From Terriglobia bacterium (GTDB lineage Bacteria > Acidobacteriota > Terriglobia > 20CM-2-55-15): a stretch of DNA of 64,000 nucleotides. The position numbers and the translations under genes are program-made. A model generated the notes under the pieces. It saw nothing but the letters and a program-made list of their open reading frames with translations, did not search any database and was not told where the DNA came from. Position 1 is the stretch's first letter. Every line of letters starts with the position of its first letter. The stretch covers positions 508,438-572,437 of the forward strand of contig CAXWPJ010000010.1 in NCBI GenBank assembly GCA_963664115.2. The letters are read 5' to 3'. This document shows, one piece after another, positions 23,532 to 34,762 of the stretch.

Positions 23532-24542
23532 TTAGTCGTTGAAGAAGATTTTTTCAAAGAGGTGGGTTCGGCGGACTTGGACCTGTCCTCCGTCTTCGGG
23601 TATCAGGAAGGCTGCAGCGATATCGTGTCTTTCGGCCCAGGCGAGACCTTCGTCCGCACCCATGACGTAGAGCGCAGTCGAGAGGATGTCGGCAACCAAT
23701 GCCCGTGGGTGCCAGACCGTGACGGCAAACTTTCTCTTGAGCGCGTGTCCGGTTTTTGGATCCAGAATATGGCCGATGCGCGCCTCACCTGTCCCGATAT
23801 CCCGTTCCGATCCACCACTGGTAGCCAGTGAGCCTTCCCTGAGCGCTATCCCCAGCACGGCCTGGGTCCGGTCGAGCGGGTGCGCCAGGGCGAGGCTCCA
23901 GGATTCTTCATTCGGAGGCGTGCCATGAACCATGATCTGCCCTCCCAGATCGATCATCCAGGCATCGATGCCCGCAGCTCTGGAATAGTCCAGCACGCGA
24001 TCCAGGGCATCGCCTTTGCCGAACGCGCCCACCTCGATCAGGATGGGTCGATTCCTGACCACGACACAATTTTCGGCATCTAAATCGAGATATTCGAAGC
24101 CAGCGTTTTCGAGTCCAAGCTGCAGTTCCTCCGTCGTTGGGCGATGTCCCCCGCGGTGGAGCCCCCAGGCCTCTACGAGAGTTCCAATTGCGGGATCGAA
24201 GGCACCATCCGTCCGATGGGCCCACGCCCGGAGTTCATCGAAGAGACGGCATAGCGCAGGCTTGAGAGGGAAGCCCGCTCCAACGGGCTGACGGTTGAGG
24301 CGACTGATGGCGCTGTCGGGCCGCCAGGTACTGAGTTCTGCTTCGCTGTCTTCAAGAGTACGAATAAAACTCTCAATCCGATTCAAGCCCGTCTGGCGAT
24401 CCGGGGCGTAGGTTTGTAAGGAAGCTCGGGTTCCCATCAAATAGACATCGCGGCGGACATCTATAGGAAAGACCGCACTCTGGGCAAAGCACTCAAGAAT
24501 GAGAGTGAGATAGATGGCTGGGATCAGGAGCGGGAACTTCAC
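23532..24542 (-). CDS. apbE: FAD:protein FMN transferase
   Basis: LMGT, TDGAFDPAIG, GAFGKG, LATSG, HILDPKTG, ADILSTA. Confidence 0.9.
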   Translation of the reverse strand: MKFPLLIPAIYLTLILECFAQSAVFPIDVRRDVYLMGTRASLQTYAPDRQTGLNRIESFIRTLEDSEAELSTWRPDSAISRLNRQPVGAGFPLKPALCRLFDELRAWAHRTDGAFDPAIGTLVEAWGLHRGGHRPTTEELQLGLENAGFEYLDLDAENCVVVRNRPILIEVGAFGKGDALDRVLDYSRAAGIDAWMIDLGGQIMVHGTPPNEESWSLALAHPLDRTQAVLGIALREGSLATSGGSERDIGTGEARIGHILDPKTGHALKRKFAVTVWHPRALVADILSTALYVMGADEGLAWAERHDIAAAFLIPEDGGQVQVRRTHLFEKIFFND

Positions 24543-25024
24543 GCGACCTGTTTTCGGGCAAAGACTTCGGACCGGTCCTTCAACCGCGACCTTTTCGATT
24601 TTATGAACAAGCGATAGCTGACCACCTGATGCGTGGCATAGGTAATGACAAAAACTGATGACGACACCAGATGCATGCCAAGCGTAATATTCGCCAGCAA
24701 CGGGGCCGTCACAACCTGAAGCATGTATCCGGAAGCGATCATCACCGGCAGCGTCACCATTGAAAGAAGACCCGAACTACGATTGGAACTCGTGCCGCTT
24801 CGAAGCTTCTTCTGAATGTGTGACTGAATCATGAGTCCGACGACGAACACCAGTACGGGCGCCACCAGAACGTGCAGGCTCAGCATGGCCGGTTGCCATG
24901 GATGATTGATGATGCTGAACGGATCGTCGGTCGCCATAGCGTACTTCATCCAGAAATAGGCCAGACCGCTGAGCATCACCAGAAGCGTAGATATGTGGGA
25001 TAACCAGATCTCCCAGGGTTTCAT
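24539..25024 (-). CDS. Four-helix membrane protein with His residues (possible cytochrome b)
   Basis: Four hydrophobic segments with His at helix ends; stop overlaps the apbE start. Confidence 0.7.
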   Translation of the reverse strand: MKPWEIWLSHISTLLVMLSGLAYFWMKYAMATDDPFSIINHPWQPAMLSLHVLVAPVLVFVVGLMIQSHIQKKLRSGTSSNRSSGLLSMVTLPVMIASGYMLQVVTAPLLANITLGMHLVSSSVFVITYATHQVVSYRLFIKSKRSRLKDRSEVFARKQVA

Positions 25025-25040
25025 CGTATTTACCTCAGAT

Positions 25041-25586
25041 CTATTCGTCTAAAACACTATTGATAGCTAAGACTCGACGCACAGCCGCTGTCGTCGCTCG
25101 TGCCGTCAACGTGGCGCCCGCAATTGGGCGGATCGCGCGATTCAAATTCAAATCCGGATTCAAGGTCTGTCCTTCGTATTGGGCCAACCAGGCCTCCGGA
25201 GCCATGTACTGAGGAGGCTCCAGAAAAGCGGTGACTTCAATCCTCACAACCAGCCCCTCCGGATCGAGACTGATCAGCAGACTTTCGTTCTTGGTCCTTA
25301 CCACGTGTGTGTCCACATACGCAGTGCCCACCAGGTTTCCGTCGTCGGTCGCGATATATCGGGCAATCAACAAAGACGGGACATCCACTCCGGACTGCGC
25401 CCCGGCCGCGCTGCGCTGGTCTTCCGTTAAAAAGACTCGCTCAGCCCGAATCTCCGCACCCGGAAAGACCTGTGCCAGGGCTTCTTCCCGTGTCGTCTGC
25501 GCCCCCGCAATCGCAATACCGGTAGACACAAAGGTCAACACCAGCACTAAGCGAAGAAGATTAAAAGCTGTATCCAAGCGCGACAT
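25041..25586 (-). CDS. Exported FMN-binding domain protein
   Basis: Signal peptide; FLEPPQY, WLAQY, IAGATLTA flavinylation-like motif. Confidence 0.85.
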   Translation of the reverse strand: MSRLDTAFNLLRLVLVLTFVSTGIAIAGAQTTREEALAQVFPGAEIRAERVFLTEDQRSAAGAQSGVDVPSLLIARYIATDDGNLVGTAYVDTHVVRTKNESLLISLDPEGLVVRIEVTAFLEPPQYMAPEAWLAQYEGQTLNPDLNLNRAIRPIAGATLTARATTAAVRRVLAINSVLDE

Positions 25587-26871
25587 TTAACTGATTGACT
25601 CCGCTCTCACCCTCGTTGACGACCCACTGGTAGTCCGCTTTCACGACGACGTTCTGAATGGGTGCAAACGCGAGGCCCAGTGTGTGAAACACGCGATCCA
25701 TCGTCGCGTCTTTTGAGAACCCTTGAGCCACACTATCCTGCGTGTCCAGGGCTTCGAATCGGTAAAACGGCGTGAGGGCAATGTCCGGCCGAACCTGAGA
25801 AAGAAGGTTGTAACCGACCTCGATATAACCCCCTTCCTGCACTTCGCCGACAGCAGCCTCACCTTCAAGCGATCGAGCGCGGTTCAACAGGTCGACGTTG
25901 TTCAGGGCAGAGCGGGCATAGAGAGCTCGAAAATTGAATCCCCGGATTTGCGCCTGCCCGTGAAGCTCAGTAATCGCGGTGCGAAGGGCAAACCCTCGCC
26001 CATCAACGGTGAACTGTCCCTGGCTCGAATCTCCGACGTAAAAAGATCCGCCCACCAAAACGCCCGGCGTTGGCGTCATATCCAGACGTCCGACAAAAGC
26101 CGGATCTGTGAACCGCGCCTTCGAACCCTTCTGCCGACCACCACGCAAGCCGTTCGAACTGAAGCCGCTTGCATCGAGCCCGTTCACGACGTACGCCCTG
26201 TAGCTGAACTTTCCAGCCGTACCGACCACTCCAAAGCCGTTCTCTCTCCACGTGGACGGCAAGAGCCGGCTTTCCGTCTCGGGGCGCCGGGCACTAAAAA
26301 ACGTGTTGGGTTCATGAAATTCGTTGGTCAATCCCATAGGAACCAGCAACAGACCCCCGCGCAAGGTAAGAGCGGGGTGAGCCAGATAATCGACGTAGGC
26401 AAACTCGACTCCGATTTCGTTCGCGTGCTCGACTTCGATTTCGGAATTGAATAGAAACTTCTCATTGAAGCGGTAACCGAAATAAACGACGGCCCTCAGA
26501 AAATCCAGCTGCGTCCCTTTTTTTACGGGGGTGCCGCTCTCGTCCTGACCCGCGAAATTCTCATAAAGCATTTCGCCATAGCCGGCGATCGAAACACCCT
26601 GGTCTTGCCGATATACGGATGCGGCCGCAGGTCCGAGTCCAAGTTGTCTGGCCTCGTCAGTTGTGATTTCAATTTCGACTTCGCTACTGCGTAGTCGCTC
26701 CAGTTCCTCCGCCAGTACATCGATCTGGCGACGCAACTCGTCAAGGTCGGCTTCGATCTGCTCAGATGACCTTCCACCGGCCTGCACAGGCGAAGCTGGA
26801 GCTGAGATCACGCTCGACACGAGGCCAAGAACGATCGCTCCAACGATTCTCCCTATCGCTTTCCTTCTCAT
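25561..26871 (-). CDS. Outer-membrane porin-like protein with N-terminal coiled coil
   Basis: Signal peptide; GYGE, FNSEIEVEHA, VEFAYVD, HEP, PSTWRENG; C-terminal GYSF. Confidence 0.82.
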   Translation of the reverse strand: MRRKAIGRIVGAIVLGLVSSVISAPASPVQAGGRSSEQIEADLDELRRQIDVLAEELERLRSSEVEIEITTDEARQLGLGPAAASVYRQDQGVSIAGYGEMLYENFAGQDESGTPVKKGTQLDFLRAVVYFGYRFNEKFLFNSEIEVEHANEIGVEFAYVDYLAHPALTLRGGLLLVPMGLTNEFHEPNTFFSARRPETESRLLPSTWRENGFGVVGTAGKFSYRAYVVNGLDASGFSSNGLRGGRQKGSKARFTDPAFVGRLDMTPTPGVLVGGSFYVGDSSQGQFTVDGRGFALRTAITELHGQAQIRGFNFRALYARSALNNVDLLNRARSLEGEAAVGEVQEGGYIEVGYNLLSQVRPDIALTPFYRFEALDTQDSVAQGFSKDATMDRVFHTLGLAFAPIQNVVVKADYQWVVNEGESGVNQLNVALGYSF

Positions 26872-27100
26872 CTGTCCTTACCTCATCTCAGCGCTGCGAT
26901 CGAACCCAGTGGCAGGACAGTTGACGCATCCTAACGACGGAACTTATACTGCAGTCGGCGTTTAGCAACGAAGTTAAAGTTTTGCGCCAGGGATGCGCCG
27001 GGGATCATCCGGCGCGTCCCACTCTACCTCTCGGAATTACCTGCAATTTCTCAACTACAAAGGCTCGCCCGCCCATCTAAGACTCCACGATCTTATTGCA

Positions 27101-27119
27101 ATTGAAAATCATTTTCAAT
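27101..27119. promoter_or_regulatory. Fur-box-like 9-1-9 palindrome
   Basis: ATTGAAAAT-C-ATTTTCAAT perfect inverted repeat upstream of the porin/FMN/ApbE operon. Confidence 0.7.
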
Positions 27120-27384
27120 ACCGAGATTGATTTTCACTGCCTGACAGACCCCTTGTCAAGCCATTCTTCCCAGCTCCCCGTCCTGGGACCGGCCAATGGT
27201 CTAGACACACAATAGGAGGCTCAAAACCAATAAAGCAGGAAGAAACAAAGAACCCACGGGCTCCTTTCTGCGGGAGCTCCTGCCCCCGTATGCGGCCTTG
27301 ACGATTTCGATTGGGTACCTACGAACGGATTGAATGGCCGACAAGACCCCCTGAGGCAGGGACAAATCAGGGCTCTGATAAGCA

Positions 27385-27412
27385 TTGACAGGAGCCCCCG
27401 GACTCATATACT
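27385..27412 (+). promoter_or_regulatory. Candidate sigma70 promoter of the RRM gene
   Basis: TTGACA-N16-TATACT about 140 nt upstream of ATG. Confidence 0.55.
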
Positions 27413-27551
27413 GATCATTCGAGTAACTGATACTAACGCCTGTTTAGGAGCCCCGTGCCTCTGTTCGGAAAGTAGTTGCATTGTGCAGTGGACCATAGCC
27501 TTTCCCGCAAAAGCCCTGGAAGTTCCCTACAGCTAACATCAAGGAAAACGA

Positions 27552-27872
27552 ATGACAAAGAAACTGTACGTTGGAAACCTGCCCTTCCAGACCACGGAAG
27601 ATGACCTCTCTGACATGTTCGCTGCGGTTGGATCCGTGGAATCGGTTCGGATCATTACCGACCGCGATACCGGACGGTCACGAGGCTTCGGCTTTATTGA
27701 AATGGGTGACGAAGACGCCGACAAGGCGATCAATGAATTTAACGGCAAGGACATGGAAGGCCGACCCTTGACCGTTAATGAAGCGCGCCCGCAGGCAGAC
27801 CGGGGTGGCGGTCGCGGTGGTGGCGGTGGCGGTGGCTACGGCCGGGGCGGCGGCGGCGGCGGCCGATACTAA
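27552..27872 (+). CDS. RRM RNA-binding protein with Gly-rich tail
   Basis: RNP2 LYVGNL, RNP1 RGFGFIEM, VNEARP. Confidence 0.95.
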   Translation: MTKKLYVGNLPFQTTEDDLSDMFAAVGSVESVRIITDRDTGRSRGFGFIEMGDEDADKAINEFNGKDMEGRPLTVNEARPQADRGGGRGGGGGGGYGRGGGGGGRY

Positions 27873-27882
27873 AGACGAATCC

Positions 27883-27922
27883 GCAAAAAGGCACGGTGGT
27901 TGAACCCCCCGTGCCTTTTTGC
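27883..27922. terminator. Intrinsic terminator
   Basis: GCAAAAAGGCACGG...CCGTGCCTTTTTGC. Confidence 0.85.
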
Positions 27923-28035
27923 ATTTATGGACAGGTCATCGATATATCGCACTCTCTTTGTTCACCCCGCCTGAATTTTTTCCGTAACAAAAAGTACTTT
28001 CCGATTTCAGATATCCGTATACTTTTTGAAGCTTC

Positions 28036-28377
28036 ATGTTTCGGCGTTACACCAACCAGACCATAGCGATTCTGCTGCTACCTCTCCTGCTGGGATTCAG
28101 TTTCCAGTGGGCTCTGGAGGTGTTCCATCCGATCGAGGAAGGAATCGCCCCCTCACATCAGCACGACGGCAGCGGTAACGTCGTCCATGCGACACATGAT
28201 CGTTCCGCGGGACATGCGCCTCATGCATGTCCGCATTCGGGCGCTTTCGCGCAGATCGGGCTTTTGGCCTCCAATTTCTCCGATAGTCAGCTGTGGGCGA
28301 CGGCCCCGTTGTTTCCTGACACGCCCCTCGTCCGATACGCTTCCAACGTTTTCCAGCGGGGCCCTCCCAGAGCCTGA
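28036..28377 (+). CDS. His-rich leader protein ending in RGPP (DUF2946/CruR-like)
   Basis: N-terminal hydrophobic segment, His-rich linker with CPH, C-terminal FQRGPPRA; directly upstream of a TonB receptor. Confidence 0.78.
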   Translation: MFRRYTNQTIAILLLPLLLGFSFQWALEVFHPIEEGIAPSHQHDGSGNVVHATHDRSAGHAPHACPHSGAFAQIGLLASNFSDSQLWATAPLFPDTPLVRYASNVFQRGPPRA

Positions 28378-28443
28378 CACATCCAATCCGTTTCCGAAAA
28401 ATCTGATTGTCGAGTCGTGGATGATGTCTCTGCGGAGGATTCC

Positions 28444-30672
28444 GTGAAGCGTTCGTGCTTTCTATTAACTATTACCAGTTGCTTGTTGATCGCCGTGTCC
28501 GGGCCGAGTTGGGCACAGGCACCCGGGGCCGTCGAAGGCCGTGTCCTCCTGCCGAACAATGACCTGGTTCACAGGGCGACCGTTTTGCTGGTGGAACTCG
28601 GGCTGACCGTCGAAACGGACGAAATCGGTCGCTACCGATTCGAGAACGTACCCGAAGGGATGTACGAGGTCCTCGCCTACCAGTCGATTCTCGACTCCGA
28701 ATCACACTTCGTCGCAGTCGTCCGAGGAGCGACGTCCACCCTTGACATCGAGCTGCGACTGTCGTCGCTGCGTCAGGAAATTACAGTGACGGCACAGGGC
28801 CGCTCGGAGTCGACGTTTCAAGCCATCCCGTCGGTCACGACACTGGACTCGTTCGATCTGTCCGAATCGATGGCGACGTCTATTGGTGAAATCCTGGATG
28901 GCCAACCCGGCGTCGCGAAACGAAGCTTTGGAGCCGGAAACGCACGGCCCGTGGTGCGAGGCTTCGATGGAGACCGTGTCCTCGTAATGCAGGACGGGAT
29001 GCGCATCGGTTCTCTGGCCTCGCAGTCGGGAGATCACGGGGAACCCATCGATGCGGGGAGCATGGAGCGCATCGAAGTCGTCAAGGGACCCGCGACACTG
29101 CTGTATGGGAGCAACGCCGTCGGCGGTGTGGTCAATGCGATCAGCACACATGAAGGCTTTCTGGAACAACCCTATGAAGGTCTGCGCGGTCAGATCTCTT
29201 CGTCCGCCGGCTCGGCAAACGGGCAAGCAGGCGGCAGCTTCACGTCCGAATACGGCTTTGGCGAATGGTTGCTGTGGTTGGGCGGCGGGGGACAACGCAG
29301 TGGGGACTACCAGACGCCGATCGGCGTGATCGCCAATTCGAAGAGCCGGGTCAGCAACGGATCCTTCGGGCTCGGCTGGTTCGGAGAAAAGGCATTTGCC
29401 AGTGTCGGATATCAGGGGAACGACGGTCGCTACGGCATTCCCTTCGCCAACACATTTGAAGGCGGAGGCGAGAGCGAAAAGATTGTGGATGCCGTCAAGG
29501 TCGCCTTCCGGCAGCACGCTGTCCGGCTGACGACAGGGCTCAAAAACCTCGGATCTGTCGTCGACAGCTTCAAACTGTCCCTGAACTACTCCGATTGGAA
29601 CCACGACGAGCTGGAAATTTTTGATGATGGTGTGCAGGAAGTCAGCACGACCTTCGAAAACCAACAGTACGTCTATAAAGGCGTGTTCACCCAGAAAACG
29701 AACGGCCGTCTTTCAGGCAGCTTCGGTGTGTGGGGCCTCGACCGTAACTTCGAGACCCGGGGCGCGGAAACTCTTTCTCCGCCTGTAGACCAGAACGCTT
29801 TTGCCGTCTTCGGACTTGAGGAGCTAAGTTTCGAAGGCCTTCGTCTGCAATTGGGGGGACGCGTCGAACACAACCGATACGCACCAGACCCCGATTCGAG
29901 TTTGGGGAAGCTTGATTTTACAGGTGTCTCGGCGGGTGTGGGGGCGCGCTTCGACCTGTGGGAAGGCGGCGCCTTTGTCGTCAACTACACGGATTCATCC
30001 CGAGCACCTGCGATGGAAGAACTCTACAATTTTGGCCCTCATGTCGGGAACCTAACATTCGAAATCGGTAACCGCACACTGGGAAGCGAACGTTCTCACG
30101 GTCTCGATTTTGCGCTCCGGCACCAGAGAGCCCGTGTGCAGGGTGAAATTAATTTCTTCTATTACGATATTAGTGACTTTGTCTTTCTGGCTCCGACCGG
30201 CGCAACGATTGACGGTCTCATCGAGGCCGCATACGCGCAAGGAGACGCGCGATATTCAGGCACGGAGATGACGCTCGATGTGAACGTCCACGAGAATCTC
30301 TGGATAAACCTGGCCCTCGACGCAGTTGACACCGAGTTAAGAAGGACTTCTGAGCCACTTCCACGAATCCCCCCACTCAGGGGAAAGATTGGTCTGGATA
30401 TTCGATATGGCGGTTTGAGCGTCAAACCCGAACTCGTCCTGGCGGACCGGAGGGACGAGGTTTTCAGCACCGAAACGGAAACCCCCGGTTACGGCCTCCT
30501 GAACCTGAGTGCCTCCTACACAATCCCGCAAGCCCATCTCTCACACCACCTGGCCTTCAGCCTCTTCAACGCCACCGACACGCTGTATCGCAATCACCTC
30601 AGCTTCATCAAGGACCTGGCTCCTGAGATCGGGCGCGGCGTGCGCCTCTCGTATTCGGTGAAGTATTTCTGA
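28444..30672 (+). CDS. TonB-dependent receptor (ZnuD-like metal receptor type)
   Basis: GGAGG SD before GTG; signal peptide; EITVTA TonB box; RPVVRG, RIEVVKGPATLLYG; terminal F. Confidence 0.93.
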   Translation: MKRSCFLLTITSCLLIAVSGPSWAQAPGAVEGRVLLPNNDLVHRATVLLVELGLTVETDEIGRYRFENVPEGMYEVLAYQSILDSESHFVAVVRGATSTLDIELRLSSLRQEITVTAQGRSESTFQAIPSVTTLDSFDLSESMATSIGEILDGQPGVAKRSFGAGNARPVVRGFDGDRVLVMQDGMRIGSLASQSGDHGEPIDAGSMERIEVVKGPATLLYGSNAVGGVVNAISTHEGFLEQPYEGLRGQISSSAGSANGQAGGSFTSEYGFGEWLLWLGGGGQRSGDYQTPIGVIANSKSRVSNGSFGLGWFGEKAFASVGYQGNDGRYGIPFANTFEGGGESEKIVDAVKVAFRQHAVRLTTGLKNLGSVVDSFKLSLNYSDWNHDELEIFDDGVQEVSTTFENQQYVYKGVFTQKTNGRLSGSFGVWGLDRNFETRGAETLSPPVDQNAFAVFGLEELSFEGLRLQLGGRVEHNRYAPDPDSSLGKLDFTGVSAGVGARFDLWEGGAFVVNYTDSSRAPAMEELYNFGPHVGNLTFEIGNRTLGSERSHGLDFALRHQRARVQGEINFFYYDISDFVFLAPTGATIDGLIEAAYAQGDARYSGTEMTLDVNVHENLWINLALDAVDTELRRTSEPLPRIPPLRGKIGLDIRYGGLSVKPELVLADRRDEVFSTETETPGYGLLNLSASYTIPQAHLSHHLAFSLFNATDTLYRNHLSFIKDLAPEIGRGVRLSYSVKYF

Positions 30673-33377: not shown

Positions 33378-34762
33378 GAGTTATAACCGAATCTGGTGTT
33401 TGAGGGATTGAATAAGAGCGGCGTATCTGGTTGATTTGTTGTGACAAAACTTCAAAGCAACCATAGGAGATACGCCACTGTGAGCAAGAGTAACGTGAAT
33501 GGACCGGAAGGTCGAGAAACGATTGAGGATCCAGTAACAGAACTACTACGAGTTGGGGCACAGCAACTGATCCAACGCGCAGTGGAAGCCGAATTGGCAG
33601 AGCTGCTATCCCAGCACGGTGGCCGGCGAACTGAGACAGGAAACGCCGGGGTGGTACGCAACGGTTATCTGCCGGAACGCGAACTGCAGACGGGATTGGG
33701 TCCGGTAACAGTCCAAATCCCGAAGGTCCGTGCCAAGACGGGCGAAGCTGTGACGTTCCGATCGGCCCTGGTACCACCGTACATTCGGAAGACGAAGTCG
33801 CTGGAAGCAGCGGTGCCGTGGTTGTATTTGAAAGGCGTTTCCAGCGGCGAGATGGGTGAGGCCCTAAAAGTTCTTGTCGGTCCCCAGGCGCAGGGTCTGT
33901 CGGCGAGCACGGTATCGCGGTTGAAACAGGTTTGGGGCGAACAGTACCGCCTCGGATGCGAGGAGCGTTTGGATGCAGATCGCTGGGTCTATGTCTGGGC
34001 CGACGGCATCTACAGCGGACTTCGGGCGGAACAAACCAAGTTGTGTGCATTGGTCGTGATCGGCGTGAATGAACGCGGAGAGAAGCGTTTCCTGGCGATC
34101 GAAGACGGTGTACGGGAATCGACACAGAGTTGGCGCGAGGTCTTGTTGAAGCTGAAGTCCCGTGGGATGAATGTTCCGAAGTTGGCCATCGGTGACGGTG
34201 CGATGGGGTTCTGGGCCGCACTGGAGGAAATCTATCCCGAGACACGTCAACAACGTTGCTGGATGCACAAAGTCATGAACGTCCTCAACTGCCTGCCCAA
34301 GTCGGTCCAGGCGAAGGCGAAACAGGCCCTGCACTCGATCTGGCAGGCCGAGACGAAGGCAGACGCCGAGAAGGCATTCGACTTGTTCATTGAAACCTAT
34401 GAACCGAAGTATCCGAAAGCCACACTCTGCCTGCAGAAAGACAGAGAGGAACTGCTGGCCTTTTACGACTTTCCGGCCAAGCACTGGCAGAGCATCAGAA
34501 CGACGAATCCCATTGAGTCGACCTTTGCCACCATTCGACACCGAACGAAGCGATCCAGAGGTTGCCTGACACGGGATGGCATGCTGCACATGATGTTCAA
34601 ACTGGGCCAGTGCGCTGAGAACAATTGGCGACGATTACGAGGATTCGATGATCTGAGCAAGGTAATCATCGGAGTGAAATTCAACGATGGTGTCGAAGCG
34701 ACACAAGTCGATCAGGCCGCCGCTTGAATCAATCTCCTAAACACCACTTTTGACAATAACTC
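33378..34762 (+). mobile_element. IS256-family insertion sequence with 9-bp target duplication
   Basis: Imperfect terminal IRs (GAGTTAT..TGGTGTTT); TGAGCGAAA duplicated at 33369-33377 and 34763-34771. Confidence 0.93.
33480..34727 (+). CDS. IS256-family (mutator-type) transposase
   Basis: RNGYLPER, WADGIY, IGDGAMGFW, QRCWMH, TTNPIES; AGGAG SD before GTG. Confidence 0.95.
   Translation: MSKSNVNGPEGRETIEDPVTELLRVGAQQLIQRAVEAELAELLSQHGGRRTETGNAGVVRNGYLPERELQTGLGPVTVQIPKVRAKTGEAVTFRSALVPPYIRKTKSLEAAVPWLYLKGVSSGEMGEALKVLVGPQAQGLSASTVSRLKQVWGEQYRLGCEERLDADRWVYVWADGIYSGLRAEQTKLCALVVIGVNERGEKRFLAIEDGVRESTQSWREVLLKLKSRGMNVPKLAIGDGAMGFWAALEEIYPETRQQRCWMHKVMNVLNCLPKSVQAKAKQALHSIWQAETKADAEKAFDLFIETYEPKYPKATLCLQKDREELLAFYDFPAKHWQSIRTTNPIESTFATIRHRTKRSRGCLTRDGMLHMMFKLGQCAENNWRRLRGFDDLSKVIIGVKFNDGVEATQVDQAAA

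Follow-up and report, generated by a model that had tools for sequence, protein, structure and literature searches.

What is the function of a short open reading frame (ORF) that ends just before the gene for a TonB-dependent receptor, and whose last codons could pair with the Shine-Dalgarno (SD) sequence of that gene? The question is raised by a locus in DNA from a Terriglobia bacterium (GCA_963664115.2, CAXWPJ010000010.1, positions 508,438 to 572,437, forward strand); the whole 64,000-nt stretch is referred to here as the window. On balance, we favor the explanation that the ORF encodes a metal-sensing arrest peptide, probably responding to zinc, in which a ribosome stalled at an RGPP motif would open a stem that hides the ribosome-binding site (RBS) of the receptor.

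Anatomy and conservation of the leader

The leader ORF (28036..28377, forward strand, ATG to TGA) encodes 113 amino acids, arranged as a helix, an HPxEE motif, an HxxHxCxH motif, a linker, and the C-terminus FQRGPPRA (RGPP-RA). A segment resembling a signal peptide or membrane anchor covers residues 9–26 (28060..28113, forward strand; hydropathy and predicted helix), within which residues 9–23 are the most hydrophobic 15-mer. There is a single Cys (C65) and there are eight His residues (31, 41, 43, 51, 54, 60, 63, and 67). Length, hydrophobic N-terminus, and single Cys agree with a preliminary description of the locus, which had also placed RGPP at the C-terminus; the motif is present, but two more residues (RA) follow it, so it is C-proximal and not terminal. 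The AlphaFold model consists of one helix (residues 2–30) with the remainder at low confidence (mean pLDDT 63, pTM 0.30), too low to add anything on the metal site. The leader matched no Pfam family at E values up to 1 and no NCBIfam model. Nothing was found by an Rfam scan of 26800–28700 at E values up to 1, hence no known riboswitch. The nearest ESM Atlas clusters are unnamed, and one "DUF2946 domain-containing" cluster at 0.95 serves as a lead only.

The RGPP motif by itself is weak evidence, since six-frame small ORFs of the genome include 27 with a C-proximal RGPP or RAPP and control motifs gave similar counts (AGPP, 9; AAPP, 14). RGPP requires upstream context for arrest, and by eye the leader is the sole one of the 27 that lies outside a large ORF, looks exported, and has a long exported gene immediately after it. 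In the source data of PMC12992588, as far as accessible, the mean frequency bias of RGPP in Acidobacteriota proteomes is 0.076. The case therefore rests on conservation. Starting from receptor homologs, we aligned 13 leaders and used them for a profile search. Matches were found in 13 of 401 genomes sampled across the phylum (a tally that takes in the window's own genome and G106, whose locus was left out of DNA counts), in 14 of 35 genomes of the same family, at two metagenome loci, and among proteins (40 and 55); those relatives that carry a name are MAGs of Terriglobia and other Acidobacteriota. An R[GAS]PP motif lies within 10 residues of the C-terminus in 81 of 89 distinct proteins (63 RGPP, 16 RAPP, and 2 RSPP), and the remaining eight are apparent fragments, frameshifted copies, one long unrelated match, and one protein with RAQP.

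Across 65 full-length members, hand-picked and with a mean column identity of 30%, residues F21, E28, C65, H67, R108, P110, and P111 are invariant, and H31, P32, E34, E35, and H63 are at least 90% conserved; H60 is invariant among the 13 closest leaders. The expectation that RGPP would be conserved is thus borne out. The His-rich tract proposed as the sensor is only partly retained: the eight His residues exist, but His41 to His54 are variable, and conservation picks out E28, H31, E34, E35, H63, C65, and H67 instead. The predicted metal site is accordingly H60-x-x-H63-x-C65-x-H67 (28213..28236, forward strand), with E28, H31, E34, and E35 further N-terminal. At the other end, the RGPP codons (28357..28368, forward strand), whose R, P, and P are invariant in 65/65, form the predicted stall site, at which Pro110 (28363) would occupy the P site; this P/A-site placement is taken from the CruR toeprint (PMC12992588).

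The distance between the two sites is nearly constant. From the Cys to the P-site Pro there are 45 residues in 75 of 81 proteins and 44–46 in all 81 (standard deviation 0.24), whereas the internal control, the spacing from E28 to the Cys, ranges from 31 to 47 (standard deviation 2.7); a profile search favors equal spacing, a bias that would hit both intervals. The linker between Cys and stall site is only 13% identical. CxxC occurs in 3/89 family proteins and PF11162 gives weak matches in 3/65 members (best E value 7e-4), so the leader is not a member of DUF2946. Comparison of these sequences establishes the anatomy of the leader and the selection acting on it, and the view that the family is a real and conserved switch of the CruR/CutF type is well supported. 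That the leader acts in cis as an arrest leader is very likely.

Upstream, a −10-like hexamer, TATACT (28018..28023, forward strand), lies 12 nt 5′ of the leader ATG. A TANNNT element ends 6–13 nt 5′ of the start in all 27 leaders with a callable start (0–3 of 27 at 11 other offsets), and 26 of the 27 starts have no SD-like word. A near-leaderless leader transcript is therefore predicted, which would suit one lead ribosome. A GTA-N8-TAC box (27984..27997, forward strand), 20 nt upstream of the −10 hexamer, is a candidate regulator site that we take to be similar to NtcA-type sites; it occurs in four same-genus leaders (L001–L004) and was not seen, by eye, in the other 23 upstream regions. No Zur-type palindrome was found upstream of the leader, using generally known patterns and those in the accessible part of PMC4176598, and the genome has two Fur-family matches. 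A long inverted repeat (27884–27921) flanked by runs of A and T was noted by eye 3′ of an RNA-binding-protein gene (27552–27872), and is likely a two-way terminator between that gene and the leader. Four metatranscriptome contig sets cover the RNA-binding-protein gene without leader or receptor, and as contigs cannot show absence, these RNA data are uninformative on the pair. Elsewhere in the window, a cluster on the reverse strand (23532–26871) encodes a porin-like protein with no Pfam match, an FMN-binding protein, a small membrane protein, and an ApbE flavin transferase, and looks like a flavinylation-linked module. An IS256-type transposase-like ORF (33441–34727, by eye) is preceded by sequence that recurs in the genome.

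Predicted pairing between the leader's last codons and the receptor SD

The 5′ arm of the stem (28363..28385, forward strand) begins at the first Pro codon, CCT at 28363, and includes the anti-SD sequence CCUCC. The 3′ arm (28418..28438, forward strand) includes the receptor SD GGAGG (28434–28438), which precedes the GTG start at 28444. Both arms lie where they had been proposed, and folding of 28340–28460 with RNAfold, which had been suggested as a check, returned the arm-arm stem as both the minimum free energy and the centroid structure (−40.2 kcal/mol, z −2.18; 6 of 200 shuffles were as good, which is modest taken alone). An alternative receptor start, GTG at 28417, was rejected as it has no SD and is not conserved. 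The leader-receptor spacer is 66 nt in the window and 61–85 nt in 28 of 29 loci; at the remaining locus (L011:3787-4045), a spacer of 217 nt carries an inserted structured element and no switch is predicted. In a promoter and terminator scan, the spacer showed a single weak match to sigma-70, and short GC hairpins were also noted.

Because Pro codons are partly complementary to an SD by nature, codon choice was compared with synonymous recodings drawn from the codon usage of the leaders themselves. Among 29 leader-gene pairs (L043 and L069 were dropped, the latter having no SD-bearing start), 27 have CCTC or CTCC within positions −3 to +17 of the P-site codon, against 11.6 expected. Taking the least favorable representative of each sequence group, the word is present in 16 of 17 groups (P = 1.5e-5); since the groups are related, this P value and those below overstate the significance. 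The word set was picked after the data had been seen, and a scan of all 163 4-mers, as a check on that choice, ranked CCTC, CTCC, and TCCT, all SD complements, as the three most enriched. Leu codons in the tail are CTC in 21 of 26 cases, compared with 72 of 284 in leader bodies. Pairing between an arm and the RBS of its own locus is also stronger than in swapped combinations (−16.2 versus −13.6 kcal/mol; P = 1e-4, 17 groups), with only 9 of 29 loci individually in the best tenth.

The cost of opening the RBS was computed with and without a ribosome at the stall site. The family median is 12.9 kcal/mol in free RNA and 7.0 kcal/mol with the ribosome footprint masked, compared with a genome background of 8.2 kcal/mol (n = 120 sampled starts); at 7 of the 29 loci, masking makes a difference of less than 2 kcal/mol. 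For the window, the cost drops from 16.1 to 7.9 kcal/mol, and the free value is 10.6 when more upstream RNA is included in the fold. A ribosome anywhere on codons 100–114 gives 8.7–10.1 kcal/mol, so that RGPP is not distinguished from neighboring positions in the model; stalling would therefore set how long the site is open rather than the geometry.

The exact stem is not universal, because the register of the anti-SD, assigned from motif and fold, shifts between the Pro-Pro codons and those that follow: 10 loci use the Pro-Pro (0) register, 11 use the tail codons (+8), and the others differ. Pairing of the Pro-Pro codons with the SD, as first proposed, is thus one register among several, although an anti-SD word of some kind is general. 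Covariation across homologous pairs, which had been suggested as a check, is weak. In the +8 register, four base pairs on the inner side of the SD show G-C/A-U swaps, with 19 of 28 paired (P = 0.035), whereas in the 0 register, the window's own, 10 of 28 inward pairs are formed, no better than shuffling (P = 0.47). Within the genus, 85.5% of the stem is paired versus 34%–54% when slid (four sequences); covariation in these four sequences does not reach significance (equaled by 117 of 500 shuffles), RNAalifold returns a different consensus, and CCUCC is lost in two of the four members. By computation, then, a stem-loop is predicted to shield the receptor SD, and we consider it likely that this stem is the main output of the leader.

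An arrest leader might instead work mainly through Rho-dependent termination, with the stem secondary, as CruR does before a TonB receptor (PMC9426467). Rho is encoded in the genome, the 5′ arm is pyrimidine-rich, and the variable register would fit. We nonetheless regard this as unlikely, given that nearly all spacers are far shorter than the 162 nt of CruR, that the enriched words exactly match SD complements, and that own arms fit own RBSs best.

The receptor, its neighbors, and the nature of the signal

The receptor gene (28444..30672, forward strand) starts with GTG and encodes 742 amino acids, including an N-terminal CarboxypepD_reg-like domain (Pfam). Its best NCBIfam match is ZnuD (NF038289; 206 bits, below the curated cut-off of 950), and its best solved structure is also ZnuD (PDB 4rdr, E value 1.7e-39; next, 1.6e-18). 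The high-affinity zinc ligands of ZnuD are described as Asp99, His100, Glu340, and His499 (PMC4557270), and receptor residues D197, H198, E389, and H533 align with them in the HMMER comparison with 4rdr, whose numbering is offset by 14 residues. This D-H-E-H set is kept in all receptor homolog rows except L028 and L030. The receptor was rightly called ZnuD-like. In the window's own genome, loop 3 lacks a His cluster, and several homologs have a His-rich loop; in one (L026), loop 3 comprises about 200 residues of His/Asp/Glu repeats with 45 His.

Thirty distinct leader loci were compared, of which 27 precede a ZnuD-like receptor, two precede a ZnuA/ABC-3 operon, and the last lies before a membrane protein of an unrelated kind. 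The leader profile by itself retrieved 11 counted matches from the phylum sample, and the receptor follows in every one. In the two ZnuA/ABC-3 operons (genomes G021 and G004; loci L072:7081-10964 and L073:7579-11617), the leader heads an exported, outer-membrane-like protein with no Pfam match, after which come ZnuA and a fusion of an ABC-3 permease with HEAT repeats. Many receptor homologs have no leader or another leader type. Eight of them, in other lineages (L018, L019, L034, L035, L010, L024, L012, and L033) have other RAPP, RGPP, or RSPP leaders of CxxC and HHHH types, which suggests that leaders were repeatedly swapped on one ZnuD-like receptor family. The window's own genome has a second leader-receptor pair (L054; C6:353849-356123 and 357950-358348). 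A frameshift breaks this second leader ahead of its RGPP motif, and the matching receptor sequence is split into two parts separated by about 1.8 kb, which could reflect decay, an insertion, or an error in assembly. The znuA region of this genome showed no R[AGS]PP leader in 3.5 kb examined on a single strand.

We consider it likely that a metal is the signal. The preliminary description favored Zn, Ni, or Co over Cu; the four ZnuD ligands and the ZnuA/ABC-3 operons agree with this and further favor zinc over Ni and Co, so that zinc, given a metal signal, is the probable one. ZnuA-family proteins also bind Mn and Fe. The same switch could respond to Cu, Ni, Co, or Mn, or the metal could strengthen the stall, as Cu prolongs the CutF stall; sets of His and Cys are not metal-specific, and published CutF-like lists place His-rich clusters before Ni/Co HupE/UreJ genes (PMC9973294). 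This too seems unlikely, considering the zinc-type ligands and operons, the scarcity of CxxC, and the expectation that uptake genes fall, not rise, with metal, and part of its uncertainty is already counted in the confidence that we give to our preferred explanation.

Less likely still is a monitor of export or envelope state resembling SecM or ApdP. An export-like helix with RGPP is the anatomy of ApdA and ApdP (PMC12992588), and F21 and E28 near the helix are invariant, but so is HxCxH, at a fixed distance from the stall site, and metal importers lie downstream in 29 of 30 loci while Sec genes do so in none. Most improbable is an ordinary small exported metal-binding protein whose stem arises incidentally from Pro codons (CCN CCN) that match a G-rich SD, for despite the natural complementarity of such codons and the modest single-locus z value, the synonymous-recoding control was exceeded, the AlphaFold model is unstructured, and the linker is fixed in length yet unconserved, with an avoided motif retained at its end.

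Proposed mechanism and comparison with known arrest leaders

Stalling, metal binding, and the direction of the response are modeled on characterized leaders. When metal is scarce, the ribosome would pause at RGPP with Pro110 in the P site, by analogy with CruR, ApdA/ApdP, and SecM, and would cover the 5′ arm, freeing GGAGG and allowing the receptor to be translated. During the stall, the 45-residue ruler would put HxCxH near the exit of the combined ribosome and translocon. Metal bound by HxCxH with HPxEE may then fold or pull the chain and release the stall, upon which the ribosome would terminate four codons on, the stem would re-form, and the receptor would be switched off, possibly with Rho termination following. 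A fuller version can be offered only tentatively, and we doubt that it holds in every part: an exported nascent peptide that reads envelope zinc through HPxEE and HxCxH and controls uptake of the ZnuD and ZnuABC types through an anti-SD in the stall codons of an mRNA with almost no 5′ leader, serving throughout Acidobacteriota as the post-transcriptional equivalent of Zur.

In the literature surveyed, so far as its text was accessible, copper is the signal of all metal-sensing arrest leaders that have been tested. Should the leader respond to zinc, nascent-peptide sensing would be extended to a redox-inert metal, and the locus would offer a compact test of how an RGPP stall is released by metal bound outside the ribosome, with controls built into the family: the strict 45-residue distance from Cys to Pro, seven candidate ligands that are nearly invariant, anti-SDs in two natural registers, and target operons of two unrelated kinds. 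We found no paper, among those with open licenses, that shows a zinc-responsive arrest leader. To that extent, the leader would be an undescribed variant, as had been suggested, but the accessible parts of published lists already contain variants rich in His, as well as RAPP leaders that precede receptors of the zinc type. RGPP/RAPP uORFs before TonB receptors are reported as widespread (Fujiwara et al. 2025, PMC12992588), and the source data of that paper include at least nine RAPP uORFs before "zinc-regulated TonB-dependent" receptors; the words "zinc," "Shine," and "stem-loop" do not occur in its main text as accessible. The motifs of the present family were not found among the matches listed there, and the family may be listed in that work. 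Both the class and its link to TonB receptors have thus been published before, and the leader is not a new principle.

The system first put forward as a precedent was CruR (Bp2923, DUF2946/PF11162), which lies before bfrG in Bordetella pertussis and is described as responding to Cu through Rho termination, with CXXC and RAPP 45 residues apart and regulation impaired by five added residues (PMC9426467); its arrest has been reported in vitro (PMC12992588). The leader shares with it a small uORF with an export-like signal, a candidate metal motif, a fixed spacing of about 45 residues, a C-proximal RxPP, an operon with a TonB receptor, and the prediction that an uptake gene is turned off with metal. 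Unlike CruR, the leader has HxxHxCxH and HPxEE in place of CXXC, is not matched by PF11162, precedes a ZnuD-like receptor, and has a short spacer with an SD-masking stem rather than Rho termination over 162 nt in response to Cu. The precedent thus holds for the ruler, the RxPP motif, and the receptor, but the hairpin output is closer to CutF. ZnuD of Neisseria meningitidis, for its part, is under the transcription factor Zur, and the receptor described here adds an N-terminal domain.

In Rhodobacter capsulatus, CutF precedes cutO, and its stall is described as opening a stem-loop that hides the SD, with the motif, 45 residues from the stall, placed at the periplasmic vestibule of SecY; CutF-like lists include His-only clusters before HupE/UreJ and frequent TonB neighbors (PMC9973294). 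The leader falls within the rule set for CutF-like proteins (PMC9973294; <150 aa, PP in the last 15 residues, same-strand neighbor within 1,000 nt), with 113 aa, PP at 110–111, and a 66-nt spacer. The rule set also names a cleavable Sec signal peptide, and the leader has a basic N-terminus and a hydrophobic helix (hydropathy and AlphaFold model). The stem-loop over the downstream SD that the rule set requires is predicted here by computation, with weak covariation. The leader lacks the CxxxC motif and cutO neighbor of CutF proper. As with CutF (PMC9973294; bioRxiv 2025.02.05.636593, as accessible), a leader with an export-like helix and a 45-residue spacing is combined with a stem, here a predicted one, over the downstream SD. 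CutF differs in having CxxxC and a proline-rich end, in a stall that is prolonged by Cu, and in turning on a detoxification enzyme, whereas the leader's target is an importer and its anti-SD lies in the last codons.
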